Of a DNA stretch of 64,000 nucleotides, positions 2 through 59,579 are shown in pieces; position 1 is the stretch's first letter; every line of letters begins with the position of its first letter. The notes beneath the pieces were generated by a model. It worked only from the letters and a program-made list of their open reading frames with translations. It ran no database searches and was not told the DNA's origin. This DNA comes from Chitinophagales bacterium (GTDB lineage: Bacteria; Bacteroidota; Bacteroidia; Chitinophagales; Chitinophagaceae). The position numbers and the translations under genes were made by a program. The stretch spans positions 14,619 to 78,618 of the forward strand of contig JBBRCW010000001.1 of assembly GCA_038204535.1 (NCBI GenBank), written 5' to 3'.

Positions 2-580
2 GCCACCGTTGAAGACAAGATGCGCAATGCCATGTATCGCACCGAAAAAACCAGGAAACTGGAGCAGGAGAACCATAGTTCATACAACGAATTTTTACAG
101 TCGCTGCACATAAAAGTAACCACCAGGCCCATAGAAGAACGGGATATTGACAGGGCATTGCAATTGGGGCTGCGTACCAACCAGTTTAATATGAATGGCA
201 TCAGGCCCGAAAGGGAACTGATTAAAAGCCATATATTAAGCGAACAACGGCTGGGATGGATGATAGACGTGGCCGACCGCTTTGGTGACTATGGCACAGT
301 TGGATTGCTGCTGGGCACACATAATATGGCTACCTTACAATTGCAAACATTTTTATTGAGTTGCAGGGTGCTGGGCAGAGGCGTTGAAAAAATCATATGG
401 CAAAACGTTCATCAATATTGCGTAACTCATTCGTTGAACGATATAATGCTTCGGTTTCAGACAACTTCAAAAAATAAGCCCTTTGAAATTTTTTTAGCAT
501 CCTCAGGGGTGCAGTGGAGCAACGACAGCCAAAATTGGCATTCAACAGTTAAATATTCTATAGAAGAAATTGGGATTTAA
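2..580 (+). CDS. fkbH: FkbH-like protein (HAD-IIIC glyceryl transferase/phosphatase with C-terminal GNAT-like domain), 5'-truncated by the window edge
   Basis: The frame is open from base 2 (ATVEDKMRNAMYRTEKTR resembles the FkbH T.ED..R..MY..E..R motif), so the ORF-track start at 20 is internal. FkbH C-terminal motifs present: QLGLRTNQFN, DRFGDYGTVG, FLLSCRVLGRGVE. Stop at 578-580, 3 nt before the next ATG. Confidence 0.85.
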   Translation, partial: ATVEDKMRNAMYRTEKTRKLEQENHSSYNEFLQSLHIKVTTRPIEERDIDRALQLGLRTNQFNMNGIRPERELIKSHILSEQRLGWMIDVADRFGDYGTVGLLLGTHNMATLQLQTFLLSCRVLGRGVEKIIWQNVHQYCVTHSLNDIMLRFQTTSKNKPFEIFLASSGVQWSNDSQNWHSTVKYSIEEIGI

Positions 581-583
581 TAA

Positions 584-3500
584 ATGAGTGAAAGTAAGAA
601 ACCAGCCGTTCGTACCGGTAAAGATATTTTTAACCTCGTCCGTTCTAAACAAAACGAAGGACAGGTTAATGTGATTCCCGAACCGGCAGGGGAAGTTCAA
701 ATTGCGCTGATGACTATTTGGAAAGGTATTTTACCGGGCGCCGGGTTTACAACCAGCGACGATTTTTTTAAAGTGGGTGGCAACAGTATAAAAGCGGTTC
801 AACTGGCCAGCCAGGCGTCCAGGCATTTTAATATCTCCGTTGAACTTACCGACATCTTTCTAAATCCCACCATAACCGGACAGGAAATTTTTATTTCGGA
901 AAAAAATCACCAATCAACTATTGTTGCCGCGATTTCTGTTCAGTCGCGTAACGGCAACATCCCCTTATCGTACAATCAGCAGTGGTTATGGTTTGCGGAC
1001 AAATTTGAAGACAGCGTTGAGTACCATTTGGCCGAAGTTTTACAATTAAAAGGAAAGATAAACTACGAGGCGCTACACTTTGCTTTTAATAGATTAATCA
1101 CCCGGCACGAGGTATTGCGAACAATTTATACTGAATATGAAGGTGTGCCTTTTCAAAAGGTAATGGGCCCGGATGAATTTAAAATCGATCAGGAGAATGG
1201 TTTTTTATACCAGGCCGATGAAGAAAGATTGAATGAATTTATTGACGGGGAAATAGGTAAACCCTTCGATCTCTCCAAAGATTACCCCATACGGGCCTTG
1301 CTGATTGCCAAAGGTAATTTTGAACATTTGCTGGTCATTAATATGCACCACATTGCTTCGGATGGTTGGTCCATGTCGATAATTGTAAAAGAAGCCATTG
1401 AAAACTATAATGGTTTTATCAGTGGCAAATTGGATAATAAAGAACCGCTAAAAATCCAATATGCGGATTACGCTATTTGGCAGCGCGATTTCTTACAAAC
1501 CAAGTCCTTAAAGGATAAGCTGGAATTTTGGACAAAAAAATTGGAGGGAGTTACAGCCATAGATCTGCCGGCCGATTTTAGCAGGCCCGCTGTAAAAACC
1601 AAAAAAGGCGCGGTAAAACATTTTTTAATTGATAACGACCTTACAGATCAGGTCCGCAAGTTGGGTAACCAGGAAGGAAGCACTTTGTTTATGACATTGA
1701 TGGCTGCCTTTAATGTGTTGTTACATAAATACAGCGGTCAAAATGATCTATGCGTAGGTACCCCCATGGCCAATCGCTTACAAAACCAAACAGAAAATCT
1801 TGTTGGGTTTTTTACAAATACGATTGCTTTTCGAAGCCGGGTAGATCCCCGGCAATCTTTTAGCGCTTTTTTGACTTCAATTAAACAAACCGCACTGCAG
1901 GCTTACTCGCACCAGGAAGTGCCGTTTGAGAAAGTAGTTGAAGCAGTTGTTAAAGACCGTGACATTAGCAGAAGTCCTTTGTTTGACGTTGTATTTATTT
2001 TACAGAATACGCCGGATATTGAGGAGATAAAATTAATAGATGCAGAGGTCAAACATACAACCCATCATTCATACCAGGTAAAATACGATCTTACATTTAC
2101 GGTTACTGAAATGCCAGATGGACTGGATTTTTTAGTAGAGTATAGATCCGATCTGTATACTTCAGGCCGCATTGATAAGATGATGGATCATTTTATCCAC
2201 CTGCTGAAGTGTATCGTTAATGCTCCTCAGGAATTAATAAGCAAGTACAAAATTGTAACGCCTGCCGAAGAAGACCAGATACTTCATGAGTTCAATTCAC
2301 CTTCCGCGTTTACCCCGCAAAATGTAGTAGAGGTTTTTGAACAGCAGGTAGAAAATGCCCCGGGCAATATTGCCCTTACCTTTAACAACCTGAGCTATTC
2401 CTATGCAGAGTTGAATCAAAAGGCGAACCGGCTGGCCCGTTTTCTTCGTGCCAAAGGGGTAACCACAGAAACACTTGTGCCAATATGTTTGGAGCGAAGC
2501 ACTGAAATAATAGTAGCCATTTTAGGTATATTAAAAGCAGGCGCTGCTTATGTACCCATCGATCCCGCATACCCGGTTGATCGAATACAATACATGCTGG
2601 ACGATATAAAGGCAACCGTTGTATTGGTGAGCCTGGAAACGGTTGATGCTATTCCGCATTTACCCGCAATTGACGTGTTGGATATTTCCTCATCCCATAG
2701 TGAAATTGACGAATTTTCACCTGAAAATCCAAAAGTTGATATCAAGCCCGATAATTTGGCTTATATCATTTACACTTCAGGTTCAACAGGTAAGCCAAAG
2801 GGGGTTATGCTTGAGCACAAAGGGGTAGTTAACCTGGCGAAAAGCCAGGCCGATAATTTGCGACTGAAGCCTGGGTTAAAAACGCTTCAGTTTGCCTCGT
2901 ATGGTTTCGATGCTTCCTGTTACGAAATTTTTAATACCCTGTTAAGTGGCGGCCAATTAGTAATTCCTAAGAAAGAAGACCTTTTATCTGCAAGCCAGTT
3001 TGAATCTTTTATCAACCTGCATAAGGTAGATGTAGCGGTATTGCCGCCATCTTTTTTGCAGGTAATGAAAAACAATATAGGTACCATCAGCACAATTGTT
3101 TCCGCAGGCGAACCCATAAATCCCGACACTTGTAAATTTTTACAGTCGCGGGATATAAGAATGATAAATGCTTATGGTCCTACTGAAAATACGGTATGTA
3201 CCACTTTAACCGATAATCCGGTTTTGGAGAATGATATTATTACCATCGGCAAACCTATAGCCAATGTACAGGTACGAATTGTTGATAAAAATAATGATCT
3301 ATGTTCTATTGGTATTAATGGAGAGATGTGCATCGCGGGTGCACAGGTGGCAAGAGGATATTTTAACCGCCCCGATCTAAGCAAAGAAAAATTTGTAAAG
3401 GACTGGTTTAACAAAGATGAAGACCAGTTAATGTATCGCACCGGCGATATTGGCCGCTGGTTACCCGATGGCAGTATTGAGTTTATCGGCCGTATGGACG

Positions 3501-6500
3501 ACCAGGTTAAGATTAGGGGTTATAGAATTGAATTGGGCGAAATTGAAAATGTATTGCAGCAATGTGAGGGTGTTGAGTTGTGTACCGTAATAGCCGGCGA
3601 AGATAAGTTGGGTGACCTGCAGTTGGTTACCTATATAGAAAGCGATGGCGTTCTTACTCGTCAGCAGGTAACGGAATATTTGCAGACCAGTTTGCCTGAA
3701 TTCATGGTACCGGGCATCATTGTATTTCTGCCTAAAATGCCACTGACCATAAGTGGTAAAATCGACAAAAAATCTTTGCCGGATCCTTCGTCTGTCGAGC
3801 TAACGGATACCGAATTCCAGGCTCCGCAAAATCCGTTACAACAAAAGTTATCTGAAATCTGGATGGAGCTTTTGGAAATTGACCGGTTGGGAATAAATGA
3901 TAACTTTTTTGAACTGGGTGGACATTCAATGCTTGCAATGCGCATGGGGGCCGCGATTCGCAGACAGTTAAACGCGGATCTGCCGGTCAAAGCCATTTTT
4001 CAACATCCAACAATAGCCTCACTATCAAAAATAATTGAACAATTTAAAGAACTGGCTCCGCTGCCCGCGATCATTCCGGGCGACAGACCTGGTAGAATTC
4101 CACTATCGTTCAGTCAGGCAAGGTTATGGTTCATTCACCAGCTTCATGGTACCAATCCGTACCATATTCCCGCGGTATTAAGGTTAAATGGTAAGCTGAA
4201 TATTGATGCGCTTAACCAGGCGTTGCAAAGCGTAGTTGACAGACACCATGCATTGCGTACCATTGTTTTGGAGGACGAAGGGCGACCTTACCAGGTTATT
4301 CAGTCTTCGAAAAAGTGGAAGCTTATGCTGGTAAATGATCCGGATTTGTCTGATGAGGGAAAGCTAAAAGATTATATCCATCAACAAGTTACAAGGGTAT
4401 TTGATCTTTCAAAGGATTATATGCTTAGGGCCCGGCTTGTTGAGTTAAATAGTGAAGAACATATATTAATATTAACGGTACACCATATAGCTGCAGATGG
4501 ATGGTCAATGCCTGTTATAGTGAAAGAAATTGTTGCTCTGTATCAACATTTCGCTTATGGTGCAGTGGCTAGCCTGCCTGTACTTAAGGTTCAATATGCT
4601 GATTATGCTATATGGCAAAACCAGTTTTTGACCGGTGAAGTGCTTGAAAACAGATTGGCGTATTGGACAAAGGTTTTGGAAGATGTTCCTCCGCTCCAAC
4701 TTCCGCTCGACTATAAACGTCCTCCTGTTCAAAGCACCAATGGCGCGGTAACGGAAATGGTATTTCCTGTAGAGGTTTTGAACGGCTTAAAGTTATTGGG
4801 AAAGCAACAATACGCAACTTTGTTCATGACTTTGTTGTCGGCATTCAAAGTATTGCTATACCGCTACTCGGGCCAGCAGGACATTTGCGTTGGAACATCT
4901 GTTGCTAACCGGCAGCATGAGGAAACCGAGGGTGTAGTTGGATTTTTTGTAAACAATATTGCTTTGCGTAGCCAGGTAATTGGCAACGAATCATTTGTAG
5001 ATCTATTAAGCAATGTCAACACTTCAGTACTTGATGCTTTTCAATACCAGGATGTACCTTTTGAAAAGGTGGTTGACGCGGTTGTTCACGAAAGAGAAAT
5101 GAGCCGCAACCCGATTTTCCAGGTGTTGTTTGTTTTACAGAATACACCGGAAATTCCTGCAATAACATTACCGGGGCTGCAGATGTCGCCGCTGGATTTG
5201 GAACACACCACGGCGCAGCTTGATATGATATTCAACGTTAAAGAAAGTGCTGAAGGTTTGCATCTTTCCGTTGAATACTGTACCGATCTTTTTGCTGTTG
5301 AAACCATACAGCGGATGATTGCCAATTTTGGTGTCTTACTTCATTCAGTCACCAAAAATCCATCTTCAAAAATTGATCAGCTTGAGTTGTTCACTGAGGT
5401 TGAAACCAATAAACTATTAAGCGAATTCAATAATACCAATGCAGCTTTGGGCATTGAAAATACTGTTGTGGACTTGTTCAATGCGCAGGTGTCACGGGTG
5501 CCAAATAACATTGCTCTAATTTATGCTGACGAGTCAATCACATTCTCTGAATTAAATGAACGATCAAACCAATTGGCGGGTTACATCGTTAGCAAGGGCA
5601 TACTTGTTGGCGACATAGTTCCCGTTTGCATGCACCGTGGTTTCGATATGCTGGTAGCAATCTGGGCGATTTTAAAAGCCGGGGCAGCCTATGCGCCAAT
5701 TGACCCTGAATATCCTGCGGAACGCATACAATTTATAGCCGGCGACACCAAAGCAAAACTTATTATCTGTAATGAAGATTCAATTTTAAACCTGGATTTA
5801 TTGCAGGCGGTTGAGCAGGTTAATCTTGACCGGTTGCAAAACACGCTTAGCGGGTTTCCAACCCATTTTACAACCATGGCAAAGCCTGGTCAGCTTGCTT
5901 ATATCATTTATACTTCCGGTTCAACCGGTACGCCAAAAGGTGTGGCAATTCAACATTGCTCATTAAGCAACTACCTTTTAAATGGCAGCACAAACTACGT
6001 AAACAGGTCAAGCGGCGGAACGGGTTCGTTCCTTAGTTTGTCATTCACATTCGATGCTTCAATTACATCCTTGTTCATGCCGTCGATAGCAGGAAAGACG
6101 TTGGTGCTAAGTGCGAATACTGGCGTTAAAGTTTTTGATGATGAGAACTTCCTGGCACATGCTCCTTTCGATTTTTTGAAGATAACTCCGGCTCACCTTG
6201 AACTTTTAAAAGCTGTTGATGACAGTTACCTCACTAATTGGTTCACGCGAAAATTAGTTATTGGAGGTGAAGCTTTGTTGCCTGGTCATATCGATCATTT
6301 CATAAAAGAGGACATCAACGTTCAGGTTATAAACGAATACGGCCCAACGGAAGCGGCTGTGGGTTGCAGCACTTATAGTTTTTTTACAGTGACCGACAAG
6401 GATATGATCAAAAACAGCATTTCCATCGGCAAACCAATTGATAACGTAAAGCTATCTATCCTCGGCCCTTCAGGCACCTTGATGCCAATAGGCGCGGCAG

Positions 6501-9500
6501 GGGAAATATGTATCGCGGGCCAAGGTTTATCGTCAGGATATTTGAATCAGCCAGAACTGACAAGCGAAAAGTTTATAGCTGATCCGTTTGGCAAAAGCGC
6601 GAAATCAAAAATTTATAAGACCGGTGACTACGGCCGGTGGTTGCCCGATGGAAACATAGAATATATAGGAAGGATCGACGACCAGGTAAAAGTGAGAGGA
6701 TACCGCGTTGAACTATCCGAAATTGAAAATGTATTGCTGAAAAGTGGGCTGGTAAAACAAGCTGCTGTAATTGTAAAACAAGACAAAGAAAATAATAAGC
6801 GCCTGGCGGCCTATGTTGTTTGCGACGACACTGAAGAACTGGAGCAAGTAAAGGAGTATTCAATCAGGGTATTGCCCGAACACATGCTGCCGTCTTTTTG
6901 GATAGCAGTTAATAGCATGCCCCTAACCATTAGTGGTAAGATTGACAAAAAAGCCTTGCCCGAACCTGTTGATAACAGCCAGCCTGAAAAAGAAATTGAG
7001 GATGCACCTTTAAGTGAATTGAATAATAAACTTGCGGATATTTGGAAAGACCTGCTGGAACTTGACGAGATTGGTATAAACGATAATTTCTTTAACCTTG
7101 GCGGAGATTCTTTACTGGCTGTTCGGGTAGTAGCTGCAATACGTAAAAAGTTGCAGGCCGGGCTTGAGATCAACGCCATATTTGATCATCCCACCATTGC
7201 CGGTTTATCATCCGTTATAGAAGGAGACAAGAACGACTTTTTGTTGCCGCCGATTGTGCCGGCTGATCGCCCGAAGAATATTCCCTTGTCGTTTAGCCAG
7301 GAGCGCTTATGGGTCATTCATCAACTTGAAGGAAGTGTGCAATATCACCTCAATACGGTCTTAAGCATAGATGGTGAGCCTGAGTTGGCGGCGCTGAATG
7401 ATGCGCTGCATCAAATCGTTTCGAGGCACGAAATATTGAGAACCGTGTATCGCCAGCAAGATGGTAAACCTTACCAGGTAATAATGTCTGCCGGCGATAT
7501 CACCCTTAAGTCAATCGATCGATCTTTCAATAATATTAGTGATGCGGAATTAAATCAACTGATATTGGAAGAGACCAGCCAGCCTTTTGATCTGGCTACC
7601 GATTACATGATCAGGGCCAGCCTGGTAAAAATTAATATGGCCCGGTTTGTTTTGATCGTCACCCTGCATCACATTGCATCCGATGGCTGGTCCAATAATA
7701 TTTTTATTAAAGAAGTAACCGAATGTTATAATTCCTTCAAACAAAAAAAGAAAGCCAGCTTACCGGCGTTGCCCATTCAATATGCCGACTTTGCCATTTG
7801 GCAGCGGGCGAATTTGCAGGGCGATCTAATGGGGCAAAAGATCGCTTTCTGGAAAACATATTTACAAAACGTAGAACCGTTGCAGCTTCCGGCCGATTAC
7901 CAGCGGCCAGCCATGCAAAGCTTTAGAGGAGCGGTCATTCCGTTTTCCATCTCATCGCAAATAAAAGAAAAGCTTCAAAACATCAGTAAGCAACACGATG
8001 CTACATTGTTTATGACCCTTTTGTCGGCCTTTTATATTTTACTGAAAGAATACAGCGGGCAGCAAGATATAACCGTTGGCACACCCGTAGCCAATCGAAA
8101 ACAGCAGGAGGTTGAATCGTTAATCGGCTTTTTTGTAAACACGCTGGTTTTACGCACCAGGGTCGATAATGACTTGTCGTTTACCAGCTTGCTTCTGCAG
8201 GTAAAGGGGGATACACTCAAAGCATTTGAACACCAGGATCTTCCGTTTGAAAAAGTGGTGGATGCGGTGGTGAGTGAAAGAGATATGAGCAGGAACCCGC
8301 TTTTCCAGGTAATGTTTGTTTACCAGGAAGATGTGCGGCAGAATAAACATGTTTTAAATGATCTCAGTGTAGCGGTCGTTCAGCCTCAACAGGATACATC
8401 AAAGTTCGACCTCTCGTTTTTTATAAATGAATCAGACGGAGATTTAGAATGTTTTGTAGAGTATTGCACCGATTTATACAGCCACGATACGGTTGTAAGA
8501 ATGATCAGTCACTTTACAAACCTGCTTCAAAATATTGCTTTGAAGTCCGATCAGCGGATTGGATCGCTCTCCTTGCTTTCACCAAACGAGCAGCACCAGT
8601 TGCTGCACGAATTTCAGGGCAGGCACATGGCCTTGAAACAAGAAAGCATGGTTAGCTTATTTGAGCAGCAAGTTGCTTTATCGCTGGATAAACCGGCGAT
8701 TGTAAGCGGCGAAAGATCCATTACTTATAACGAGCTTAACGCGCTTAGTAATCGCATTGGCCGTTATCTGCAGAGCCTTGGTGTTAAGGCCGGAAGTTTT
8801 GTGCCCGTGAATATGGAGCGAAGTATAGAGATGGTAGTGGCGCTGCTGGGCGTGTTAAAAGCGGGTGCGGCTTACGTTCCCATAGATAAGACTTACCCGC
8901 TGCAAAGGGTGGCATACATGATAAAAGACTGCGGCGCCTCAATAGCGCTTTGCAACAGCTCCACCAGCAGCCAATTGATAGATATTTCAGGAATTACAGT
9001 GGTCGAAATTGATAACAACGCAGCGATTGGCCTTCAAAAGTCAGACAATACCAGGCAGGCCATCAGCCAGAACGATCTTGCTTATGTAATGTACACTTCG
9101 GGAAGCACAGGCCAACCAAAGGGAGTAATGATAGAACACAGAAGCGTATCGGACTTTTTGCAATGGTGTCACCAGGAGTTTGGCCAGTCGGATGTGGAAA
9201 CAGTATATGGCGGCACTTCCATTAATTTTGATCTGTCGGTGTTCGAAATTTTTTACAGCCTTACCAGCGGCAAAACCTTAAGGCTTTTGCAAAACGGCTT
9301 AGAGGCCGCCCGCTACCTGCCGGGAGATCAGAAAGTACTGCTCAATAGTGTGCCTTCCGTCATAGAAAGTTTATTAAAAGAAAACACCGATCTACGAAAT
9401 GTAACGGTGCTGAATATGGCTGGCGAGCCTGTATCTGCATTCATACAGCAGCATCTTGACCAGGAAAATATAGAAGTGAGAAACCTGTACGGCCCTACCG

Positions 9501-12500
9501 AAGACACTACCTACAGCACGGTTTACCGCATGCGCAAAGGACAGCCGCTCCTGATCGGCAAGCCTATTGCCAATTCGTATATACGTATTGTAAACCCGCA
9601 ATTGCAATTACTGCCAGTTGGAATAACAGGAGAAATTTGTATTGGAGGTGCAGGCCTGGCGCGGGGTTATTTAAACCGGCATGACCTGACGAATGAAAAA
9701 TTTATAAATGATCCTTTTAGCAGCGAAGCTGACGCGCTATTATACAAGACAGGCGATGTAGGGCGTTGGTTACCCGACGGCAATATAGAATATTTAGGCA
9801 GAATAGACGACCAGGTAAAAATTCGGGGCTACAGGATAGAACTGGGCGAGATTGAAAATGTTTTACAGCAAAACGAAACCATAAGCCAGGCAGCAGCCGT
9901 GGCTATAACAGACAATAATGGAAGTAAAAGATTAGCCGCCTACGTGGTGCCCGGGCCTGGATTCAATAAAGAAAAACTGGAATTGTGGCTGGCTCAAAGA
10001 TTGCCTGACTATATGGTGCCGCATTTGTGGATGCAACTGGAGCGCCTTCCACTAAACCAAAATGGTAAGATCGACAGAAAGGCTTTGCCCGCGATAGAAC
10101 CGGCGGAAAGCTCACCAAAGCGTTACACTGCACCCACCACGCAGACGGAAATTCAGCTTGCCGCCATTTGGGGCGAACTTTTGGGCAAAGAACAGGTGGG
10201 GGTCGATGATAACTTCTTCGGGTTAGGGGGCGATAGCATTTTAACCATTCAGGCGGTAAGCCGGGCCAACCGGCTGGCATACCATTTACATCCGCGGGAT
10301 ATATTTAAGCACCAAACCATCAGGCGTTTGAGTAAAGCCCTGGCTGATAATCATGCAAAGGCAATCACCGGCGAACAGGGTCAGTTGCAGGGTATAGCAG
10401 GGTTGTTGCCCATTCAACATAATTTTCTGGAAAGCGATCAGCCTGAACCTTCGCATTATAATCAAAGCGTGTTGCTGAACATAAACAAAAATGTTAGCAA
10501 ACACATGTTGCGGCAGGTTGTCAGGTTGCTGGTACAACAGCACGATGCGCTCAGGTTTCGCTATTTTAAAAATGACGGAATCTGGCAACAGGAATATGGC
10601 CAGGCACCAGGCGAATTATTTATAGAAGATTTGAGGAGTTCAGGCGATGTACCTGCAGCCCTTGATCAAATAGCCAACCAATACCAGCAGAGCCTTAATA
10701 TTGAAAAGGGCGGCCTGGTAAGAATGGTATGGATACAAATGCCAGGGGAAGTGAATAGTGAAGAACGAATAGTGAATAATGAAGAACGAATAATGAATAG
10801 TGAAGAACGAATAGTGAATAATGAAGAACGAATAATGAATAGTGAAGAACGAATAGTGAATAGTGAAGAACGAATAGTGAATAATGAAGAACGAGCATTA
10901 GTTAATGAAGAATCTTCATCCCTCATTCCTCAACCCAATTCCTTCAGCAATCGCCAACTGACAACTGACAACTCACCACTCACCACTCACCACTCACCAC
11001 TCACCACTCACAACTCACTCACCGCTCACCAGAAAAATCGTCTCCTTATCATCATCCACCACCTGGCAGTAGACGGTGTATCGTGGAGGCTGTTACTGGA
11101 GGATTTGGAAGTGTTGCTGACAGCCGCGGCCAGCGGACAGCAAGCCATTCTTCCCACTAAAACCAGCAGTTACCGCCAATGGTACCAGGCATTGGAACAA
11201 TATGGGCAAAGCAGCAGTCTGCTGAAACAAAAAGAATACTGGCATCAGGCGGCAAGCAGGCAAAGCTTACAGATAACAGATACGAAATACGAAGGCCCCA
11301 TATTGGTAAAAGACCTGGGCAATTACAAAACAAGCTTAGATGCCGGCGAAACCAGTCTTTTGCTGCAGCAGGTACCCAAAGTGTACCATACAGGCATCAA
11401 CGACCTTTTGCTTGCCGCCCTGGCCCGCGCCTTTCAACAGCTTTTGAAAACAAATACATTATTGATCGGTCTCGAGGGGCAGGGCAGGGAGGATATCTCC
11501 GCAGTCATAGATACAAGTCATACGGTTGGCTGGTTCACCAGTTTATACCCGGTGCTGCTCAATATCGAAAATTGTATAAACCACGATCAACTGATAAAGG
11601 CAGTAAAAGAACAGTTGAGAGCGGTACCTGATAAGGGGCTTAGCTATGGGGTTCTAAAATACATCAACCATGATAAAGCGCTTAAAGGGAAAGAGCAGTA
11701 CGATCTAATATTTAATTACCTGGGGCAATTGGATAACGTGACGGGTAACAGCAAATGGTTCAGTGTAGCACGTGAAAATTCAGGCGAAAACAGAAGTGGC
11801 GAAACCGAAGTGTTTGAAAAGATATCTTTAGCGGCACAGGTATTAGAAGGGCAACTCGAACTTCATTGGAGCTATAGTACCAAACATTTTAATGCGCAAA
11901 CCATACAGAATTTAGCCGGGGTTTTTGTAGGCCACCTGGCAGCCATCATCAGCCATTGTCAAAAGCAAGAGGAGATTGCCGGTGCAGTTTATACCCCGTC
12001 TGATTACGGCATAGAAAAAGAGGTAAGTTATCCTGAACTGGATGCCTTTTTACAAACCGGTGTCAATGGGCAGCCCATCAGCCGGCAGATAGAAAGCATT
12101 TACCGGTTAAGCGGATTGCAGCAAGGCATGCTGTTCCATAGCCTTTATCATCCGGGCGGCGCTTATATTGAGCAGTTTACCTGCAGCCTTCCGGCGGAGG
12201 TTAACCTGGAGGCCTTTGAAAAAAGCTGGCAGGCGGTGATAGAACGCCATACCATTTTGCGTTCTTCATTTTGGTTTGATGCCTTAAGCATACCGGTGCA
12301 GGCCGTCATGAAACAGGCCGTACTGCAAATCACCCAAATTGACCTTCGGCAAAAATCCATAGAGGAACAGGCGGCTGCCATATTTACCTTTGAAAGCGAA
12401 GACAGAACGCGGGGCTTCGATTTTAAGCAGGCGCCGCTTATGCGCCTGGTCTTGCTGCATACCACAAACGGCTACAGGTTGGTATGGACCTACCATCACC

Positions 12501-15500
12501 TGCTGATTGATGGCTGGTCGATGCCAGTATTGTTCCAGGAGTTTCTGAAAGCCTACGACCAATTATCTGCCGGGCAGCAACTACCGGCACAACCAATAGA
12601 CCATTACGAAGACTACATCCGGTACATAGAAGGCATCAATAAGGACGAAGAAGAAAGCTACTGGAAAAACTACCTTAAGGGTGTTGACGGCCCAACCTTG
12701 CTGCCCTTTATCAGCGCCCTTGCCGGCCGCAATAAGGCGGGGGGCATTTTTGAAACTATACAATGGAATGCTGATGAAGCCCTTCAAACGGCTGTCCATC
12801 ATTTTGCCCAAAAGAACCGGATAACGGTCAATACGATTATGCAGGGCATATGGGCGTACCTGCTGAGCCAATATACAGGAAAACCAAACGTGGTTTTTGG
12901 TATCATTGTATCTGGCCGTCCAAACGATTTGCCGGAGGTAGAACAACGGGCAGGCCTGTACATCAACACCTTGCCGCTTGCTGCGCATATTGAAAATGCC
13001 GATACAATAGCCGATTGGCTGCAACGCATGCAGCAGGAACAAATTAACAGCCTGGCTTATCAATACACACCGCTGGCAAACCTGCAGGCCTGGGCTAAAA
13101 TACCAGGCGATTTTTTCGACAGCATATTAATTTTCGAAAACTACCCGGTCAGCAAATTATTGACCGATACGCATTGGGGATTAAAGGTGACGGATGCCCG
13201 GATGAACGAGCAAACCAACTATCCTTTGACAATCGCCATTCACGATAGCGGGCAGTTGCAGTTCAGTTTTAGCTATAACACCCAATTGTTAGCGGAACAA
13301 TATGTACACAACATACAAGCTCATTTTAAGCGGGTATTGGCACAGGTGGTGCAAAATGAAGCTACCGCTATCGCCGATCTGCAACTGCTGAGCAAAACCG
13401 AAGAAGAAAAGTTATTGGGATCATACAACCCAACTTCTGCTTATTATCCCAATGACAAAACCATTACCGCTTTATTTGAAGAGCAGGCAGCCAGGACACC
13501 TGAAAACGTAGCGGTAGTTTTCGAGGGTAAGCATTATACGTATGAACAAATAAATAAAAGGGCAAACCAGGTGGCGCACTGCCTTAAAAACAAGGGAGTT
13601 ACTGCTGAAACATTGGTGCCCATTTGCCTGGAAAGAAGTGTGGAGATGATAGTGGGACTGCTGGGTATAATGAAAGCAGGCGGCGCTTATGTTCCTATTG
13701 ATCTGGATTATCCGCTTGACCGCATACGTTTTATTTTGAAGGATACAGCGGCAACGCTTCTTGTAACGAGCGGAGAAGTCGCTGATCGCTTGCATAGTGA
13801 GGTTTCGATAGAGGTCATAAAGATTGACAGCGATCAGCCGCACATCTATAACGAGCCCGAAACCAACCTGCCCGCCATAGCCGGTGGAAATAACCTGGCG
13901 TATATTATTTACACCAGCGGATCCACAGGCATACCCAAGGGCGTAATGATTGAGCATAGTTGCGTGGTCAATTTAGCCATGAGCCAGATCAGGGAATTTG
14001 GTATAGACGAAAGCGAGAAAATACTACAGTTTTCCAGCTATGCATTCGATGCTTCGGTAGAGCAAATAATCATCGCCTTATTTACCGGTGCGGCTTTAAT
14101 ATTGGTTGATAAAGAAACACTAACGGATACCGGCAGGCTGATTGCGCTGATTGAGCGGGAAAAGGTAACACATGTGCATGCCACCCCCAGCTTTCTTGAA
14201 ACAGTAACGCCAGCAAAATATGGCCATTTAAAAAGAGTGATTGCCGGTGGCGAACAATGCCCGCTTGTATTGGCGCAGTCGTGGGGCAAGCTGGTGACCT
14301 TTTATAACGAGTATGGCCCTACCGAAACATCGGTAACCAACATTGAACACAAATATTCACCCGATAATGATTTAGATACACTTGCTATTGGAAGGCCGAT
14401 AAGCAACACTCCCGTCTATATCGTAAATACCGATGGGCAACTGGCACCCGAAGGGGTTGTGGGCGAAATATGGATTGGCGGATCAGGCGTAGCACGTGGA
14501 TATTTGAACCGTGCGGAACTTACAGAAGAAAAATTTATTGCAAACCCATTTGATAAACAAGAGAACGCCAGGGTTTATAAAACCGGTGATTATGGCCGAT
14601 GGTCAGCCAATGGCTATCTTGAATATTATGGCAGAATAGACGAACAGGTTAAGATCAGGGGATACCGGATTGAACCAGGCGAAATTGAAAAAGTATTGCA
14701 GCAGAGCGGGCTGGTAAAACAGGCGGTGGTGGTGGTAAGCGAAAGCAGCACCGGCAACAAGCAATTGGTTGCCTATGTAGTAGCTGGTGAAAAAGCGTTC
14801 GAACAAAAACTTGCTCAGGATTATCTGTTCGGCAGGTTACCTGCTTACATGGTACCCCAGGTTTGGATCGAAATAGAAAAGATACCGCTATCAGCAAATG
14901 GTAAAGTAGATAAAAGCGCTTTGCCATCAGCCGACGATTTAATGGCAGACAGTAACTTGAAAGTACTTCCCCGCAATGCAACCGAAGCAACGCTGGCAAC
15001 CATCTGGCAAAACATATTAGGCACAGATCAGCCATCTGTATTAAGTAATTTCTTTGAGCTGGGAGGCCATTCTTTGCTGGCCATGCGTTTATTGTCTGCT
15101 ATACGCAGGCAGTTCAATGCTGAACTGGGAATAAAAGAAATATTTACGCATCCAACCATCGCGCAAATGGCGGAGCTGCTAAAAACTGTATCGGCAGGTT
15201 CCGATGTAACTCCAATTGTTCAAGTTGATCCAAAACCAGAAAATATTCCCTTATCGTTTGGCCAGGAACGCTTGTGGTTTATCGACAAACTTGAAGGAAC
15301 CACCCAATACCACATCCCTGTCTTGCTGCGCTTAAAAGGAACCCTTGACAGAACATTACTGCAGAAGGCTTTTGAAAAGATAATCGAAAGGCACCATGTG
15401 CTCAGGACCGTACTTGCGGAAAACGCCGGTTCTCCATTCCAGGTGGTAAAAGAAGCGACTGATTTTGATTTGCAGTTTGCCGATGGCGCGGGCTACAGTA

Positions 15501-18515: not shown

Positions 18516-21500
18516 TTGAAGAAAGCGATCGACATATTGTATTTAGCAAGGCAGGCCGGTGTTGAAATATTACTCAATGGCAACGATCTGAATGTGCGCA
18601 TTCCGAAAAACAAAACGATTGATAAGGATATTATTGCTGGTATCAGGGCCAATAAAGAGGCCATCATCAATGTGTTAAGAAACAACGTTTTGGGCAGCGG
18701 TGCCGAAGAAGACAAAATACAGCCATATGATAAAGCTGCTATTCCCTTTGTTCCGCTGTCTTTTAGCCAGGAGAGGTTGTGGTTTATCCATCAAATGGAG
18801 GGCAGCCTGCAGTACCACCTTACAAAACAATTAATATTAAAGGGAAAGGTTGACGCTGATGCCTTGAACCATGCACTGAAAAATGTGCTGGAGAGGCATG
18901 CGATTTTACGCACAGTTTTGCGCGAAAATAGCGGCAAACCTTATCAGCATGTGCTCGATTCCGCCGACTGGAAAATGGATGTGATTGATCTTTTCGCCGA
19001 AAACAACCCCGAATTTGTAAAGAAAGCTGTCGCCGCCCGGTCAAATCTGCCTTTCGATCTAAGCAACGATTATTTGATGCGGGCCTCATTGTTCAGGCTG
19101 AATGAAACAGAACACCTGCTTACATTAACAATGCACCACATTGCCGCCGACGGATGGTCTTTTCCAATAGTTGTAAGAGAGATCATTGAATTGTACCAGC
19201 GCTATCTAACAGGCAATTTGGAGCCCTTAGGTGCTTTGCCGATTCAGTTTGCCGATTATTCCATTTGGGAACGCAGGCAATTGACCAAAGAAGTGCTTGA
19301 TAAAAAACTGGAATACTGGAAAGAAAAATTGAAAAGCATAACACCTTTACAAATACACACTGATTTTGTAAGGTCTTTGGTAAGAAATGCAAAAGGAGCA
19401 TCGGTCAGTGGATCCATAGATAACGACCTGTTAAAACAATTGGTTAAGCTGGCCAATCAGCATGGCTGCACTTTGTACATGCTGATGCTTTCAGTTTTTA
19501 AAGTGCTTTTATATAGACTGAGCAACCAGCAAGATATATGTGTTGGTGCGTCTATTGCTAACCGCAGCCGTGACGAGATCAAAGATCTGGTCGGCTTTTT
19601 TGTAAATACGCTTTCATTCAGAAGCGAGGTTAATGGAACAATGCCGTTTACTGAATTACTTCAGCAGGTAAAGAAAACAACCCTGGAGGCATTTCAGCAC
19701 CAGGATGTTCCGTTTGAAAAAGTAGTGGAGGCGGTTCTTAAAGAAAGAGATACATCGCGTACACCTGTTTTTCAGGTGATGCTGGTGCTGAACAATACAC
19801 CTGCTACTCCGAATATTAATCTGGGCGGGCTCCAAATAGTTGCCGCCGAAGAAGAAGTACCGCTTTCAAAATTCGATTTTACTTTCTTTTTGGCGGAGAC
19901 CGCCAATGGCCTGAATATAAATGCGGTGTATAGCACTGATTTGTTCAGGCACGATACTGTTGTGTCAATGCTTGATCGGTATGTTACGCTCCTGCGATCC
20001 GTGGTAAATGAGCCGGGCTCGCGGGTTGGGCTGTTACGAATGATGACGCCTGCCGAAGAGAAAACTATCGTACAGCGTCTCAAGGCTCCTGCATTTACGA
20101 TGCCTTTAAATAAAAGCGTTGTCAATTTATTTGAAGAACAGGTAGTAAGGTCCCCCGACAGGCTGGCGGTAGTATTTGAAGATGAAGAATGCTCGTTTGC
20201 CGAAATGAATGCCAGGGCAAATAAACTGGCCGGGTTTTTAAATCAGCGGGTGATGCATCCCCAATCGCTTATTCCGGTATTTTTAGATCGGTCGGTCGAT
20301 ATGGTAATAAGCATTTTGGCCATACTAAAGGCAGGTCATGCATATGTGCCTATAGAAGTTGATCTTCCTGAAGGCAGGATTGACTTTTTACTTAAAGACC
20401 TTGATGCGCATTTCATAGTCAGCAACACTATGAATGCCGCCAAACTAAGTGGCCGAAAAGATATTGAAATAATCAGATCGGATGATAATGCCATCGATGC
20501 GCTATCAGCCGATAATTTGCAATTGGAAGTTACCGCCGGCCACCTGGCGTATGTAATTTATACCTCTGGCTCTACGGGCAAACCCAAAGGTGTAATGATC
20601 GAACATGGCAGCATTGTGGATTATGTATGGGGACTGAATGCAGCCATCAGGATAGACGAATGCAAGTCTTACGCGCTGGTTTCGTCGTTTGCTACAGACC
20701 TTGGCAACACCGTTGTGTTCAGCTCATTACTTTTAGGAGGAACCCTTCACATCCTGTCTAAGGAAAGTGTTGCAAGCAGCCATTACCTCTCCGGTTATTT
20801 TTCCAAACACCAGATTGACTGCCTTAAAATAGTCCCTTCGCATTGGAAAGCTTTGAGCCAGGATGGTGAATTATTGCTGCCAAAAAAACGCTTGATTTTT
20901 GGAGGAGAGGCATTGTCAGGACGAATAATTGAAGACATCAGGGCAGCTGATCCTTCCTGTAATATTATCAATCATTACGGACCTACCGAAACAACCATTG
21001 GCAAATTATTGCATCGCGTAGATCTCAACCAAAATTACACCGATACCATTGCCATAGGTAAGCCATTTGGAAATACCCGCGTGCTGGTACTAAGCAGCCA
21101 AATGCAGGTTTGCCCGGCGGGTGTGCCCGGCCAGTTGTATATAGCAGGAAGTGGCGTGGCAAGAGGTTATTTGAACAACGAAGAACTTACCCGGCAAAAG
21201 TTTATACAATACATTTCCGGCGAACAATCAATCAGAATGTACGCAACCGGCGATTTGGTGAAAATGTTGCCCGACGGAAACATTTTGTTTTTAGGCAGGG
21301 TTGACGACCAGGTAAAAATAAGGGGCTACCGCGTAGAGCTCGGGGAGATAGAAAGCGTGCTCCGAAAAATGCCTGGCATTCATTTATGCGCGGTAACTGC
21401 GCCAGCCGATACGCTGGGTGTGCGAAATTTGATAGCATACATCCAGCCGGAAAAATCACTTACGCAGCAGCAGGTTTTGGAATACCTGCAGGCGCTTTTG

Positions 21501-24500
21501 CCTGACTATATGCTGCCCGCCGAAATTGTTTTCTTAGAAGAGATGCCTTTAACCATCAACGGAAAGATTGACAAAAAAGCCTTGCCCGATCCCGGGCAGT
21601 ATACCCATAAACAGCAAAGTTATACACCTGCCCGCAACAGCACAGAACAACGTCTCTGCCAGCTTTGGCAGCATATATTGGAAGTGGAGCCTATTGGTAT
21701 TCACGATGACTTTTTTGCCCTCGGAGGCCATTCGTTGCTGGCTGTCAGATTGATTTCACTTATAAGAAAGGAGTTCGATATTGAAATACCTATCAGTCAT
21801 ATTTTCGATTATCCTACCATAGCCCTGCTGTCAGAACAGTTGGTTAGCGCAAAAGCAGGTGTGGTTTTGCCTCCTGTTTCTGCGGTAGATCCGCGGCCCA
21901 AACATATTCCGCTCTCTTTTAGCCAGGAACGGCTTTGGTTTATTGATAAGTTAGAAGGCAGCCTTGCTTACCATGTTCCTGCTGTGTTGCGTTTAAAGGG
22001 AAAACTGCAGACAGATGCACTCGGTTTGTCGCTCAAAACCATTGTTAATCGTCACGAGGTTTTACGTACTTTTTTTATTGAGCAGGAAGGCCAGGTTTAC
22101 CAGCAGGTAAAAGAAAAAGATCAATGGCATTTGCAATTGGTGGATGGAACAGCATTTATTGGCGATGATACGAGCCTGCGCGGGTATGTGCAACAGTTAA
22201 TAACGTCGCCGTTCGATTTGTCTAAGGATGATATGTTACGGGCAACGCTCATCACAATCTCCGACGAGGAATTTGTATTAGTTATCACGGTGCATCATAT
22301 TGCCTCCGATGGATGGTCGCGTTCAATTATTGTTGATGAGCTGGCCAGCATATATAGCGACATTACAAACAACCAGCCGGTTCATTTATCACCCTTAACG
22401 GTGCAGTACGCGGATTATGCCATTTGGCAACGAAATTATATAAAGGACGACGTTCTGCAGAAACTGCTGCAATACTGGAAAGAAAACCTGGCTGGCACCG
22501 AAACACTACGGTTGCCTGTTAACCATCAGCCTGGTTCAGGCCAAAGTAAGTTAGGTGGCAGCGTTCCCTTTGAAATAGACAGCCAGTCGGTGGTCTCTTT
22601 GCACCGGTTAAGTCAGCAACAGGGCAGCACGTTGTTTATGACTTTGTTGGCTTGTTTTAAAGTGTTGTTATTCCGCTATACCGGTCAAACGGATATTTGT
22701 ATTGGAACACCCATAGCTGGACGGCAACATCAGGAACTGGAAAATCTGATCGGGTTTTTCCTCAATACATTGGTCATTCGCACTAACATTGATTCCAAAC
22801 AGTCTTTCATACAGTATTTGCAGCAGGTTCGTGCGGTAACACTGCAGGCATATGAGCACCAGCAAGTGCCCTTCGAGAAAATTGTGGAGGCGGTAGTTAC
22901 CCATCGCGATGTGGGAACAACACCTTTGTTTAATGTAATGTTTGTGCTACAGAATACACCCGATGTAAAAGTGCTGGTTCTGGGTGATGTTAAACTGACG
23001 GATGAAATGACAGACCTGCATGCCTTCCGGTACGAGCTGTCTATGTTTTTAACTGAAGCAAATGGCGTTATAACCGGATCCCTCGACTATGATGCCAGGT
23101 TGTATAGCAAGCAATGGGTTGAAACACTCGTGGGGCACTATATTCAATTAATTAAAGAAATAGCGGGCCAGCCGGATAAGTCAATTTCCGGCGTTCAGTT
23201 ATTGAGCCAGCAGCAAAAACAACATTTGCTTTTCTTATTAAATGAAACCGGTACCGCAGCACCGCAAGGCAAAACTATCATTCAGTTGTTTGAAGAAAGG
23301 GTTGCTGCCGGTCCGCACCAGGTTGCATTGATACACGGCAACCATTCGCACACTTTTCAAGAGATAAACCAGCGTGCCAATAGCCTGGCAAACCTGCTGA
23401 TTGAAAAGGGGGCAGGTGCCGGAACAATTGTGCCTGTTTATATTGAAAGGTCGGTGGAGATGGTGATCGGTTTACTGGCCGTTGCCAAAACAGGTGCCAT
23501 CTATGTACCGTTAGACCCCGACTATCCCGAAGAAAGGATACAGTATATTATCAATGACACCGAAGCACAGTTTGTGGTTACAAGCCAGGCATTGGCTCAT
23601 TACTTTGACAACGGGCAAAAAAGAACCATCATTGCCATACCTGAAGAATGGAAAAACGAAACTGATTGCAATAATTCATCGCCGGGCATCACGGCTGATT
23701 CTACTTTCTGTATGGTGTATACTTCCGGTTCAACGGGTAATCCAAAAGGAGTAAAACTCAGCAATGCAAATGTACTGAACCGCATCAACTGGATGAACGA
23801 TGCCTATCCTTTTACCCAGGGAGAAAGGGTTGCGCTTAAAACTTCCATAGGCTTTGTGGACCATATCAGCGAAATATTTTCGCCGTTGATATTTGGCATT
23901 ACCGGGGTAATTTTTAGTAAGAACGACTTGTTAGACATGGAACTTCTTTGCGAAAAATTATACAGCCACCAGGTGAGCCGCTGGGTGCTGGTTCCATCAT
24001 TATTAAGCGCCTTTATACAGCATATAAAAGACAACCCGATGTCGTTGCCGGCATTAAAGTATTTTACCAGCAGCGGCGAATTGCTCAGCGGCGAATTGGT
24101 GAAAGATTTTTACAAGGTTTTTCCAGCCGCCCATCATAAACTGCTGAATATTTATGGCTCCAGCGAAGTATCGGCAGACGTAACCTGTTACGATACAAGT
24201 GCAGATTTTATGGGTTATGGCAATGGTAATACAAATGCGGAGCTTTCAGAAAGCGGATATAAAGTGCCCATTGGTAAGCCCATTGCTAATTGCAGCATTT
24301 ACCTGGCAAATAAAGATATGAACCTTGTACCCCAGGGATGTTATGGCGAAATTTGTGTGGGCGGCGCACCGGTGGGCCAGGGATATTATAAGAATGAAGA
24401 ATTAAACCTCCAAAAATTTATAAACGATCCTTTTAATGGCAATGGAGGTAAGATATTTAGAACGGGCGATATTGGCCGCTGGCTGCCCGATGGCAATATT

Positions 24501-25118
24501 GAATATGCCGGCAGAATAGATGACCAGGTAAAAATTAGAGGCAATAGGGTAGAACCGGGCGAAGTGGAGAACGCCTTGATCGAAAGCGGATTGATTATAC
24601 AAGCGGCGGTAGTGGCTGGTAAAGACCAAAAGGGCAATAATTATTTGGTAGCCTATTTAGTTGCAAATGATTATAATAAACAGGCCCTGATAAGTGTTTT
24701 GCAAAAGAAAATACCGGCTTATATGATACCGGCCTTTTGGGTTCAGGTGGAATCTTTGCCTCTAACCCCCAGTGGTAAGATCGATAAAAAACAATTGCTT
24801 TCGTTACCTCTGCCGCAGCAATCGCAAAACGAATATATAGCCCCCCGTACTGCTACTGAAAAAGTATTGGCCGAAATTTGGCAGCACCTTTTGCATATTG
24901 AAAAGGTAGGTGCGGAGGATAATTATTTTGAATTGGGCGGGCATTCATTAATGATCGTAAAATTGGTCTCGGCTATCCGCAAACAATTTTCTATTACGGT
25001 TCCCCTGGCGGTCTTATTTCAGTTGAATACCGTTGCGGCATTAGCCGGTTATATTGATTGGGAGCTAAATTCTATTGGCCACGAGGAAACGGCAGCAATG
25101 GAAGTTGTAAAATTATAA
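18516..25118 (+). CDS. NRPS subunit 2 (2200 aa, TTG start): N-terminal docking domain-[C-A6(Asp)-T]-[C-A7(beta-amino-acid type)-T]
   Basis: TubC_N-like N-terminus (AIDILYLARQAGVEILLNGNDL...IRANKEAIINVL). C motifs HHIAADGWS and HHIASDGWS. A6 code DLTKIGHIGK (Asp type). A7 has FVDHISE and YGSSEVSAD (code VDSVTSIADK). Two GGHS carriers. Confidence 0.96.
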   Translation: MKKAIDILYLARQAGVEILLNGNDLNVRIPKNKTIDKDIIAGIRANKEAIINVLRNNVLGSGAEEDKIQPYDKAAIPFVPLSFSQERLWFIHQMEGSLQYHLTKQLILKGKVDADALNHALKNVLERHAILRTVLRENSGKPYQHVLDSADWKMDVIDLFAENNPEFVKKAVAARSNLPFDLSNDYLMRASLFRLNETEHLLTLTMHHIAADGWSFPIVVREIIELYQRYLTGNLEPLGALPIQFADYSIWERRQLTKEVLDKKLEYWKEKLKSITPLQIHTDFVRSLVRNAKGASVSGSIDNDLLKQLVKLANQHGCTLYMLMLSVFKVLLYRLSNQQDICVGASIANRSRDEIKDLVGFFVNTLSFRSEVNGTMPFTELLQQVKKTTLEAFQHQDVPFEKVVEAVLKERDTSRTPVFQVMLVLNNTPATPNINLGGLQIVAAEEEVPLSKFDFTFFLAETANGLNINAVYSTDLFRHDTVVSMLDRYVTLLRSVVNEPGSRVGLLRMMTPAEEKTIVQRLKAPAFTMPLNKSVVNLFEEQVVRSPDRLAVVFEDEECSFAEMNARANKLAGFLNQRVMHPQSLIPVFLDRSVDMVISILAILKAGHAYVPIEVDLPEGRIDFLLKDLDAHFIVSNTMNAAKLSGRKDIEIIRSDDNAIDALSADNLQLEVTAGHLAYVIYTSGSTGKPKGVMIEHGSIVDYVWGLNAAIRIDECKSYALVSSFATDLGNTVVFSSLLLGGTLHILSKESVASSHYLSGYFSKHQIDCLKIVPSHWKALSQDGELLLPKKRLIFGGEALSGRIIEDIRAADPSCNIINHYGPTETTIGKLLHRVDLNQNYTDTIAIGKPFGNTRVLVLSSQMQVCPAGVPGQLYIAGSGVARGYLNNEELTRQKFIQYISGEQSIRMYATGDLVKMLPDGNILFLGRVDDQVKIRGYRVELGEIESVLRKMPGIHLCAVTAPADTLGVRNLIAYIQPEKSLTQQQVLEYLQALLPDYMLPAEIVFLEEMPLTINGKIDKKALPDPGQYTHKQQSYTPARNSTEQRLCQLWQHILEVEPIGIHDDFFALGGHSLLAVRLISLIRKEFDIEIPISHIFDYPTIALLSEQLVSAKAGVVLPPVSAVDPRPKHIPLSFSQERLWFIDKLEGSLAYHVPAVLRLKGKLQTDALGLSLKTIVNRHEVLRTFFIEQEGQVYQQVKEKDQWHLQLVDGTAFIGDDTSLRGYVQQLITSPFDLSKDDMLRATLITISDEEFVLVITVHHIASDGWSRSIIVDELASIYSDITNNQPVHLSPLTVQYADYAIWQRNYIKDDVLQKLLQYWKENLAGTETLRLPVNHQPGSGQSKLGGSVPFEIDSQSVVSLHRLSQQQGSTLFMTLLACFKVLLFRYTGQTDICIGTPIAGRQHQELENLIGFFLNTLVIRTNIDSKQSFIQYLQQVRAVTLQAYEHQQVPFEKIVEAVVTHRDVGTTPLFNVMFVLQNTPDVKVLVLGDVKLTDEMTDLHAFRYELSMFLTEANGVITGSLDYDARLYSKQWVETLVGHYIQLIKEIAGQPDKSISGVQLLSQQQKQHLLFLLNETGTAAPQGKTIIQLFEERVAAGPHQVALIHGNHSHTFQEINQRANSLANLLIEKGAGAGTIVPVYIERSVEMVIGLLAVAKTGAIYVPLDPDYPEERIQYIINDTEAQFVVTSQALAHYFDNGQKRTIIAIPEEWKNETDCNNSSPGITADSTFCMVYTSGSTGNPKGVKLSNANVLNRINWMNDAYPFTQGERVALKTSIGFVDHISEIFSPLIFGITGVIFSKNDLLDMELLCEKLYSHQVSRWVLVPSLLSAFIQHIKDNPMSLPALKYFTSSGELLSGELVKDFYKVFPAAHHKLLNIYGSSEVSADVTCYDTSADFMGYGNGNTNAELSESGYKVPIGKPIANCSIYLANKDMNLVPQGCYGEICVGGAPVGQGYYKNEELNLQKFINDPFNGNGGKIFRTGDIGRWLPDGNIEYAGRIDDQVKIRGNRVEPGEVENALIESGLIIQAAVVAGKDQKGNNYLVAYLVANDYNKQALISVLQKKIPAYMIPAFWVQVESLPLTPSGKIDKKQLLSLPLPQQSQNEYIAPRTATEKVLAEIWQHLLHIEKVGAEDNYFELGGHSLMIVKLVSAIRKQFSITVPLAVLFQLNTVAALAGYIDWELNSIGHEETAAMEVVKL

Positions 25119-56328: not shown

Positions 56329-56395
56329 GTCGGCAGTTCATTTTCGGTCATTCATTTGTGGTCTTTTTTAAAAAAATGAGCAATTACCTGTTACG

Positions 56396-57634: not shown

Positions 57635-57673
57635 GGGTTAAAGTTTTGATCTAAAAATAATGAGAATCAAAAC

Positions 57674-59555: not shown

Positions 59556-59579
59556 CAGAAAATCAACTTAAAAGAAGGT

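Follow-up and report, generated by a model that had tools for sequence, protein, structure and literature searches.

An FkbH-type acyl-transfer half and an adenylation-less carrier at the head of a 14-module nonribosomal peptide synthetase from a Chitinophagales bacterium: a candidate split glycerate module

The DNA analysed here, referred to as the window, is a stretch of 64,000 nucleotides from a Chitinophagales bacterium (GenBank assembly GCA_038204535.1, contig JBBRCW010000001.1, positions 14,619 to 78,618 of the forward strand), and our analysis is concerned with its left edge, where the end of an FkbH-type gene is followed by the first of five nonribosomal peptide synthetase (NRPS) genes. 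NRPS subunit 1 opens with a carrier (T) domain that has no adenylation (A) domain of its own, which we call T0, and continues with a condensation (C) domain, C1. A previous reading of the same DNA, made from the sequence only, had proposed that the FkbH protein loads T0 with glycerate and that the peptide is thereby primed; the glycerate is retained below, the priming is considered the less likely part. The features of this region are the following:

2..580, forward strand: C-terminal 192 aa of an FkbH-type protein (acyl-transfer half, with the fold of the GCN5-related N-acetyltransferases, GNAT) and its TAA stop, matching TIGR01686
362..382, forward strand: motif SCRVLGR(G), with C121 followed by R-x-x-G-x-G
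578..586, forward strand: gene junction TAA-TAA-ATG, i.e. the FkbH stop, an extra stop and the NRPS start
608..655, forward strand: N-terminal motif VRTGKDIFNLVRSKQN ahead of T0, conserved in the relatives that begin with T0
689..907, forward strand: T0, the A-less carrier, Pfam PP-binding at aa 42-97 (E 3.6e-10)
932..2215, forward strand: C1, a condensation domain of the LCL type, with HHIASDG at aa 255-261

The open frame at window positions 2-577 encodes 192 residues, closes with a TAA stop codon at 578-580 and gives the FkbH protein the C-terminal tail KYSIEEIGI. The fragment matches positions 150-320 of the 323 positions of the NCBIfam model TIGR01686, “FkbH domain” (E 7.8e-37, 127 bits); it falls under the cut-off of 146.65 bits only because half of the domain is located outside the window, and the full-length relatives from the loci L001, L002 and L003, introduced below, score 248-296 bits. 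No Pfam model covers the region of the fragment. In the full-length relatives, the acyl-transfer half is accompanied by a phosphatase half of the HAD family and by an N-terminal extension of ~215 aa, both of which are here located to the left of position 1. When the fragment is aligned with 24 database homologues and with 60+ FkbH-like regions of the loci examined, all of the C-terminal residues that are invariant or near-invariant in the family are present: R51, Q61, N63, D92-R93-F94-G95, S120-C121, L124-G125 and E129. The pattern that runs through the C-terminal half of the whole alignment (R..QL.LRTNQFNM, DRFG..G, LSCRVLGRGVE, KN) is represented in the fragment by RALQLGLRTNQFNM, DRFGDYG, LSCRVLGRGVE and SKN; residues S120, C121, L124 and G125 are invariant across 25 homologues and conserved over the 60+ FkbH loci.

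The AlphaFold2 model of the fragment, built with a 25-sequence alignment, has a mean predicted local distance difference test score (pLDDT) of 91.4 and a predicted template modelling score (pTM) of 0.83, and a Foldseek search against the PDB gives GNAT acetyltransferases, without exception, as its top matches (probability 1.0, TM about 0.55-0.72); a sequence search of the PDB returns only the HAD part of BF1531 (3slr), which is uninformative on the C-terminal half. Cys121, with the R-x-x-G-x-G that follows it, resembles the pantetheine/pyrophosphate-binding motif A of the GNAT fold; from published OzmB and FkbH work, C121 is presumably the residue that carries the glyceryl group covalently, and we assign it this candidate role. 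The GNAT-like fold and the Cys121-RxxGxG motif identify the visible fragment as the acyl-transfer half of the protein, i.e. the half that is expected, from the model and the motif, to face the phosphopantetheine arm of the carrier. No protein identical to the fragment or to the T0 query occurs in a set of 5.8 billion proteins; the window sequence is also present in sediment-metagenome runs.

The FkbH stop is followed by a second TAA at 581-583 and by the ATG of subunit 1 at 584, so that the two genes are separated by 3 nt. The N-terminus of subunit 1, RTGKDIFNLVRSKQN, lacks a docking domain of the TubC_N type and contains instead the motif RTGKDIFNL ahead of T0; its general form, RTGKDI(F/I/V)xL, is found in the N-termini of all relatives in which T0 comes first, whereas their modules farther downstream share only 37-46% identity, and the motif may be a site of contact or docking for the FkbH protein. 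T0 spans aa 36-108 according to a hidden Markov model (HMM) built from the T domains of the window, and its GGNS motif (aa 65-68) contains the phosphopantetheine-accepting serine, Ser68, at nt 785-787. The carrier directly after FkbH has no cognate A domain, as in the glycerate modules (C-FkbH-T) of the vioprolide and cystomanamide type, and is followed by C1. A comparison of post-FkbH with post-A carriers gives no signal that T0 belongs to a special class of the former, their median BLAST ranks being alike. In a neighbour-joining tree computed for 36 C and epimerization (E) domains, C1 is placed among the C domains not preceded by an E domain (LCL type), and the E domains and the C domains that follow them (DCL type) form separate clades; among about 220 C domains, the nearest neighbour of C1 is the post-T0 C domain of L003 (49% identity). 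The sequence-only reading had described an FkbH-type open reading frame (ORF) ending 3 nt before subunit 1, a lone carrier (the quoted string is present) and an LCL-looking C domain, and all of this is borne out.

The same head, i.e. FkbH followed by T0 and C1, has been found in eight loci, listed here with the identity of their FkbH to the window fragment:

L001: 63% identity, the nearest relative; upstream side known
L002, from a Chitinophagaceae metagenome-assembled genome (MAG): 51% identity; upstream side known
L003, from a Flavisolibacter MAG: 51% identity; upstream side known
L070: 52% identity; upstream side known
L005: about 37-41% identity; upstream side known
L068, L069 and L071: upstream side ended by the end of the contig

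The tight junction between FkbH and T0 recurs in L001, L002, L003, L068, L069, L070 and L071, and the post-T0 C domains of the relatives are mutual nearest neighbours. Co-linearity of the downstream NRPS with L001, L002, L068 and L069 was considered and rejected, since matches on the diagonal, at 37-46% identity, are similar to those off it; the conservation of the head next to such downstream modules argues that FkbH, T0 and C1 are a cassette that has been inherited, or has moved, as a unit. The short standalone carrier genes of L070 (156 aa) and L071 (169 aa) were set aside as truncations: the C domain of L070 continues in another frame, which indicates a frameshift, and L071 breaks off at the same place, a frameshift or chimeric joining being the probable cause.

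From these relatives we infer all that precedes window position 1, including the remainder of the FkbH protein. In L002, a single protein of 2,038 aa has the order C-A-T-C*-FkbH, where C* denotes the C domain directly ahead of FkbH and the A domain has an Ala code, and the next gene begins with T0-C-A and continues onward; the first C domain of this protein, an outlier, is probably a starter C domain. Farther upstream in L002 are genes for a phosphopantetheinyl transferase (PPTase), a type II thioesterase and a CmlA-like beta-hydroxylase, and then a gene that does not belong to the cluster. In L070, C*-FkbH is again followed by T0-C, the available sequence beginning inside the C domain. In L001, a protein ending in T-C-A-T is followed by a gene for a TubC_N dock, the N-lobe of a C domain and an FkbH core, and then by T0-C. 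L005, an in-line example from outside the window's subclade, has the order A-T-E at the end of one protein, followed by a protein in which a C domain of the DCL type, FkbH and T are fused. Genes for CmlA-like di-iron beta-hydroxylases are located just upstream of the FkbH-bearing gene in L002 (L002:2450-4075) and in L003 (L003:1148-2794), which suggests that residues of those peptides are beta-hydroxylated; the window itself contains no gene of this kind, and one may be located to its left.

In a neighbour-joining tree of the 192-aa region, the window groups with L001, then with L070, L002 and L071, and the standalone FkbH proteins L003 and P0045 fall in a sister group together with L068, L069 and P0047. 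Every member of the window's subclade whose upstream side is known (L002, L070 and L001) has a C domain fused ahead of FkbH, and in L002 and L001 this C-FkbH unit is preceded by at least one C-A-T module. A HMMER scan of 1.84 billion representatives at 50% identity has yielded 9,127 matches, the best 150 of which were mapped with HMMs built from the window's own domains: of those among the 150 whose N-terminus is known, about 80% contain further domains ahead of FkbH, and FkbH is the C-terminal domain, as it is in the window's protein, in 27. About 16 of these 27 have the order C-A-T-C-FkbH, A-T-C-FkbH, C-FkbH or, with a ketosynthase (KS), KS-T-C-FkbH, and about 6, with lengths of roughly 530-560 aa, stand alone. 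The C domains that precede FkbH are, by sequence, a class of their own, the nearest neighbour likewise preceding FkbH in 74 of 86 cases, and this class fits a specialised, ester-forming role. As separate observations, the proteins P0043 and P0044 contain two FkbH modules each, the tandem of P0044 (C-FkbH-T-C-FkbH-T-C-A-T) being one that would imply two consecutive glycerate units, and many megasynthases of the database have the order KS-T-C-FkbH-T.

An intact FkbH acyl-transfer half and an A-less T0 stand at the head of a pure NRPS, without KS or methoxymalonyl genes, which makes the incorporation of glycerate ahead of the 14-residue peptide the natural reading. In the FkbH family, the HAD half binds D-1,3-bisphosphoglycerate and removes its phosphate, and the glyceryl group is held on a conserved cysteine of the GNAT-like half before it passes to the carrier (PMC8949500, PMC10099666, along with published OzmB/FkbH work). 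We infer the same substrate, and its transfer to T0, for the window's protein; this loading is well supported by homology, since the fragment retains every residue conserved in the family and has a confidently predicted GNAT fold. The explanation that we favour, and consider moderately probable, is that the window holds the end of an ester-forming glycerate module split between C-FkbH and T0 and fed by an upstream aminoacyl or lipoaminoacyl unit, the glycerate not being a free starter. The glyceryl group would pass from FkbH to the phosphopantetheine arm of T0; because T0 opens the next gene and has no A domain of its own, FkbH and T0 would act as one module divided over two proteins, with FkbH in the place of the A domain. 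The N-terminal part of the FkbH protein would most likely contain the specialised C* domain, with one or more C-A-T modules before it, and C* would esterify the upstream acyl, (lipo)aminoacyl or peptidyl unit onto a hydroxyl of the glycerate, which, at least while the chain is being assembled, would act as an ester hinge close to the N-terminus. C1 would then form the amide between the glyceryl carbonyl on T0 and residue 1, after which the chain would be extended by the 14 C-A-T modules, with epimerization after modules 3, 10, 11 and 14, and freed by the thioesterase (TE).

The C-fused subclade, the census and the distinct class of the pre-FkbH C domains together favour the view that the window's FkbH ends a C-FkbH protein to which a module further upstream supplies its unit; this we estimate to be some two to three times as probable as a standalone starter. 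The sequence-only reading is thus modified in two respects: its FkbH gene encodes a genuine FkbH-type domain with an intact acyl-transfer half, but probably the tail of a larger C-FkbH protein instead of a small standalone one, and its glycerate keeps the position ahead of the peptide, but the words “starter” and “primed” go beyond what the window shows, the relatives of its subclade with a known upstream side having a C domain fused before FkbH. O-acylation of the glycerate by domains upstream of the window, which had been mentioned there in passing, becomes the likelier case, given the C domains ahead of FkbH in the relatives.

A wider version of the same idea, which we regard as tentative and rather improbable, is that a cassette of the order (starter C-A-T)-C*-FkbH followed by T0-C1 occurs throughout the Chitinophagaceae and attaches a short (lipo)aminoacyl leader through the glycerate ester: the leader would serve as a hydrolysable pro-drug or export handle, the RTGKDIFNL junction would be the docking interface through which the cassette is swapped between unrelated assembly lines, and L001 would be a case of cassette loss. 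Such a leader would be analogous to the acyl-glycerate of pre-vioprolide, but aminoacyl-based.

Several points weigh against the split ester-forming module. The catalytic DxDxT (HAD motif I) and the HAD motifs II-IV of this FkbH copy are located outside the window, as is everything upstream of them; the tree of the 192-aa region carries no support values; T0 has no sequence signature that distinguishes it from ordinary peptidyl carrier proteins (PCPs); and, to our knowledge, no product, substrate or loading assay is on record for any FkbH member from the Bacteroidota. Two of the relatives also depart from it. In L003, a CmlA-like gene is followed by a standalone FkbH of 550 aa and by T0-C, with no C domain ahead of FkbH and, on the left side, a stretch of about 1.1 kb devoid of sizeable ORFs; the layout is that of a real starter, so that the starter arrangement exists in the family. 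In L001, the nearest relative, FkbH looks decayed (L001:3788-5725): it has DCNNT for the DxDxT of HAD motif I, which reads DCDNT in L002, L003 and L005 and DADNT in L070, an in-frame stop 13 codons further on, and a deletion that has removed the C-lobe of the C domain and the N-terminal extension of FkbH, joining the N-lobe to the HAD core. The C remnant of L001 is of the ordinary LCL type, its nearest neighbour being the first C domain of window subunit 2, and the locus looks like the deletion scar of an L002-like gene of the order dock-C-A-T-C*-FkbH, or an assembly artefact.

The layout of L003 is exactly that of the strongest alternative, according to which a standalone FkbH of ~550 aa loads T0 with glycerate as a true starter and the 14-residue peptide is N-capped with free glycerate. 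The standalone proteins among the FkbH-ending representatives of the census also agree with it, as do the FkbH loading modules that are known from suomilide and dysinosin (PMC8609519); nevertheless, the tree places the window with the C-fused and not with the standalone forms, and most of its nearest representatives with a known N-terminus have upstream domains, so that we consider a true starter rather unlikely. The state of L001 raises the alternative of a decayed or inactive remnant, with T0 unloaded or skipped and the line starting or continuing otherwise; this we hold to be improbable, since the visible frame of the window is uninterrupted, with every family-invariant residue retained, the serine of T0 and the HHxxxDG motif of C1 are intact, and the state of L001, a single metagenome contig, may itself result from faulty assembly. 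Conversion of the FkbH product, i.e. to hydroxymalonyl- or methoxymalonyl-acyl carrier protein (ACP) for a polyketide synthase (PKS), or to lactate, pyruvate or a tetronate, is suggested by the actinomycete FkbH homologues found in GTDB species genomes, most of which are located in PKS or tetronate-like contexts, but it is very improbable here, its methoxymalonyl and tetronate forms being largely excluded: a C domain directly follows T0, motif searches of all six frames find no KS, acyltransferase (AT) or HAD motif I in the window, and neither the window nor the upstream side of the five close relatives L001, L002, L003, L005 and L070 contains a KS, an AT, a dehydratase or ketoreductase, the FkbI/FkbK dehydrogenases, the FkbG O-methyltransferase or the discrete ACP of the fkbGHIJK type. 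The sequence-only reading had likewise seen no KS and had argued against a PKS-extender role within the window, and both points agree with these findings.

The assembly line downstream of the head consists of five NRPS genes, in which Pfam finds C, A, T, TE and TubC_N docking domains only:

584..18388, forward strand: subunit 1 (5,934 aa), T0-C-A-T-C-A-T-C-A-T-E-C(DCL)-A-T-C-A-T, modules 1-5
18516..25118, forward strand: subunit 2, C-A-T-C-A-T, modules 6-7
25126..36453, forward strand: subunit 3, (weak TubC_N dock)-C-A-T-C-A-T-C-A-T-E, modules 8-10
36468..44636, forward strand: subunit 4, C(DCL)-A-T-E-C(DCL)-A-T, modules 11-12
44663..53506, forward strand: subunit 5, TubC_N dock-C-A-T-C-A-T-E-TE, modules 13-14 and release

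In total, the five genes contain T0 and 14 C-A-T modules, i.e. 14 A and 15 T domains; modules 3, 10, 11 and 14 are each followed by an E domain, and the line closes with a TE. The number of A domains agrees with the 14-residue peptide proposed from the sequence alone. The TubC_N-type docks are located at 25126-25300 (subunit 3, weak) and 44663-44840 (subunit 5). The line ends in T-E-TE (50960-53506), with no carrier between the E-type domain and the thioesterase; this terminal E-type domain has the motif HHLAIDA and is placed in the E clade of the tree, and the last residue is probably released in the D-form. The specificity codes of the A domains, of the Stachelhaus type, were obtained by alignment to the Phe-activating domain of GrsA, for which the procedure reproduces DAWTIAAICK:

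Module 1: DAYVVAAVCK
Module 2: DATKVGEVGK
Module 3: DLFNNALTYK, E domain next
Module 4: DAEHIGEVTK
Module 5: DAWFLGNVVK
Module 6: DLTKIGHIGK
Module 7: VDSVTSIADK
Module 8: DILQLGVIWK
Module 9: DPLYLAQVVK
Module 10: DATKVGEVGK, E domain next
Module 11: DLFNNALTYK, E domain next
Module 12: DAWFLGNVVK
Module 13: DLTKIGHIGK
Module 14: DGYFLGVVYK, E domain and TE next

We take these codes to be aromatic for module 1, Asn for modules 2 and 10, Ala for modules 3 and 11, Leu for modules 5 and 12, Asp-like for modules 6 and 13, Gly for module 8 and Ile/Val-like for module 14, and make no assignment for modules 4 and 9. The A domain of module 7 (23277-24803) lacks Asp235, which binds the alpha-amino group; its code resembles those of domains that activate beta-alanine or beta-amino acids, so that the seventh residue may be something other than an alpha-amino acid. 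At 75% identity, the A domains of modules 3 (8648-10093) and 11 (38070-39515) stand out, other pairs reaching at most 52%, and the order Asn-Ala-(x)-Leu-Asp of modules 2-6 is repeated in modules 10-13, which hints at a partial internal duplication of the assembly line.

The cluster ends at about 53.5 kb, and the region at 53687-64000, outside it, contains housekeeping genes: the right flank encodes a Wza-like polysaccharide export protein, a WbaP-like sugar transferase, PAP2, a DAO-family oxidoreductase, nadC, gpmI and a haem-binding protein, the GpmI sharing 75-78% identity with proteins from Danxiaibacter, Niastella and Chitinophagaceae. The right side of the cluster has no genes for a transporter, a PPTase, MbtH or tailoring functions.

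FkbH modules that load glycerate, esterify it with a fatty acyl group or insert it internally have all been published (PMC8949500, PMC10099666, PMC8609519, PMC9581180); the chemistry itself is not new, and all three readings of the locus, as starter, ester and in-line module, are thus within known kinds. In vioprolide and corramycin biosynthesis, with the order FAAL-ACP-C-FkbH-T (FAAL, fatty acyl-AMP ligase), an ester-forming C domain links a fatty acid with glycerate, and this acyl group is taken off at a later stage (PMC8949500, PMC10099666). These systems of the Myxococcota share with the window the use of FkbH in the place of an A domain, the glyceryl group on a PCP, predicted in the case of T0, and an ordinary C-A-T module next; their ester-forming C domain is ahead of FkbH, in a region that for the window's locus is located to the left of the window. 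They differ in that the window's module is split between FkbH and T over two proteins and belongs to the phylum Bacteroidota, and in that the donor in the window's relatives is a C-A-T (aminoacyl) module and not FAAL-ACP.

Module 4 of cystomanamide, C-FkbH-PCP, is located between the Phe and Tyr modules and gives the product Asn-Asn-Phe-GA-Tyr, with GA for the glycerate unit (PMC9581180); it is an in-line module with a peptidyl donor from the preceding C-A-PCP-E (PMC9581180), matching the layout of L005 and also the layout inferred from L002 and L001. The cystomanamide module is near the C-terminus of a five-module line and forms one polypeptide, whereas that of the window is ahead of 14 modules, with T0 at the head of a separate subunit. 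In the cyanobacterial suomilide (SuoB) and dysinosin systems, FkbH-T at the start of the NRPS gives an N-terminal glycerate (PMC8609519), the layout of the starter model; however, FkbH and T are fused there and accompanied by methylation and sulfation functions, and no such tailoring genes are visible here. FkbH itself, OzmB and the tetronate loaders share the TIGR01686 match and the motifs LRTNQFNM, DRFG and SCR with the fragment, but they feed methoxymalonyl-ACP or tetronate chemistry together with dehydrogenase or KS-like partners that are absent here.

The present locus is set apart by its phylum, by a module divided between FkbH and T, by a donor module that in the relatives is aminoacyl and not fatty-acyl, and by how long the line downstream is. 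Among the papers of the searched library that mention Bacteroidetes, Chitinophaga and NRPS, none mentions FkbH, and the locus would thus represent an early case of glycerate incorporation by FkbH in this phylum, by a module placed ahead of an unusually long, Asp/Asn-rich peptide of 14 residues with four D-residues. The three or four characterised cases greatly understate how common C-FkbH-T modules are in sequence data, and the forms that occur in the census, i.e. C-A-T-C-FkbH, KS-T-C-FkbH and tandem FkbH, are useful for genome-mining rules.

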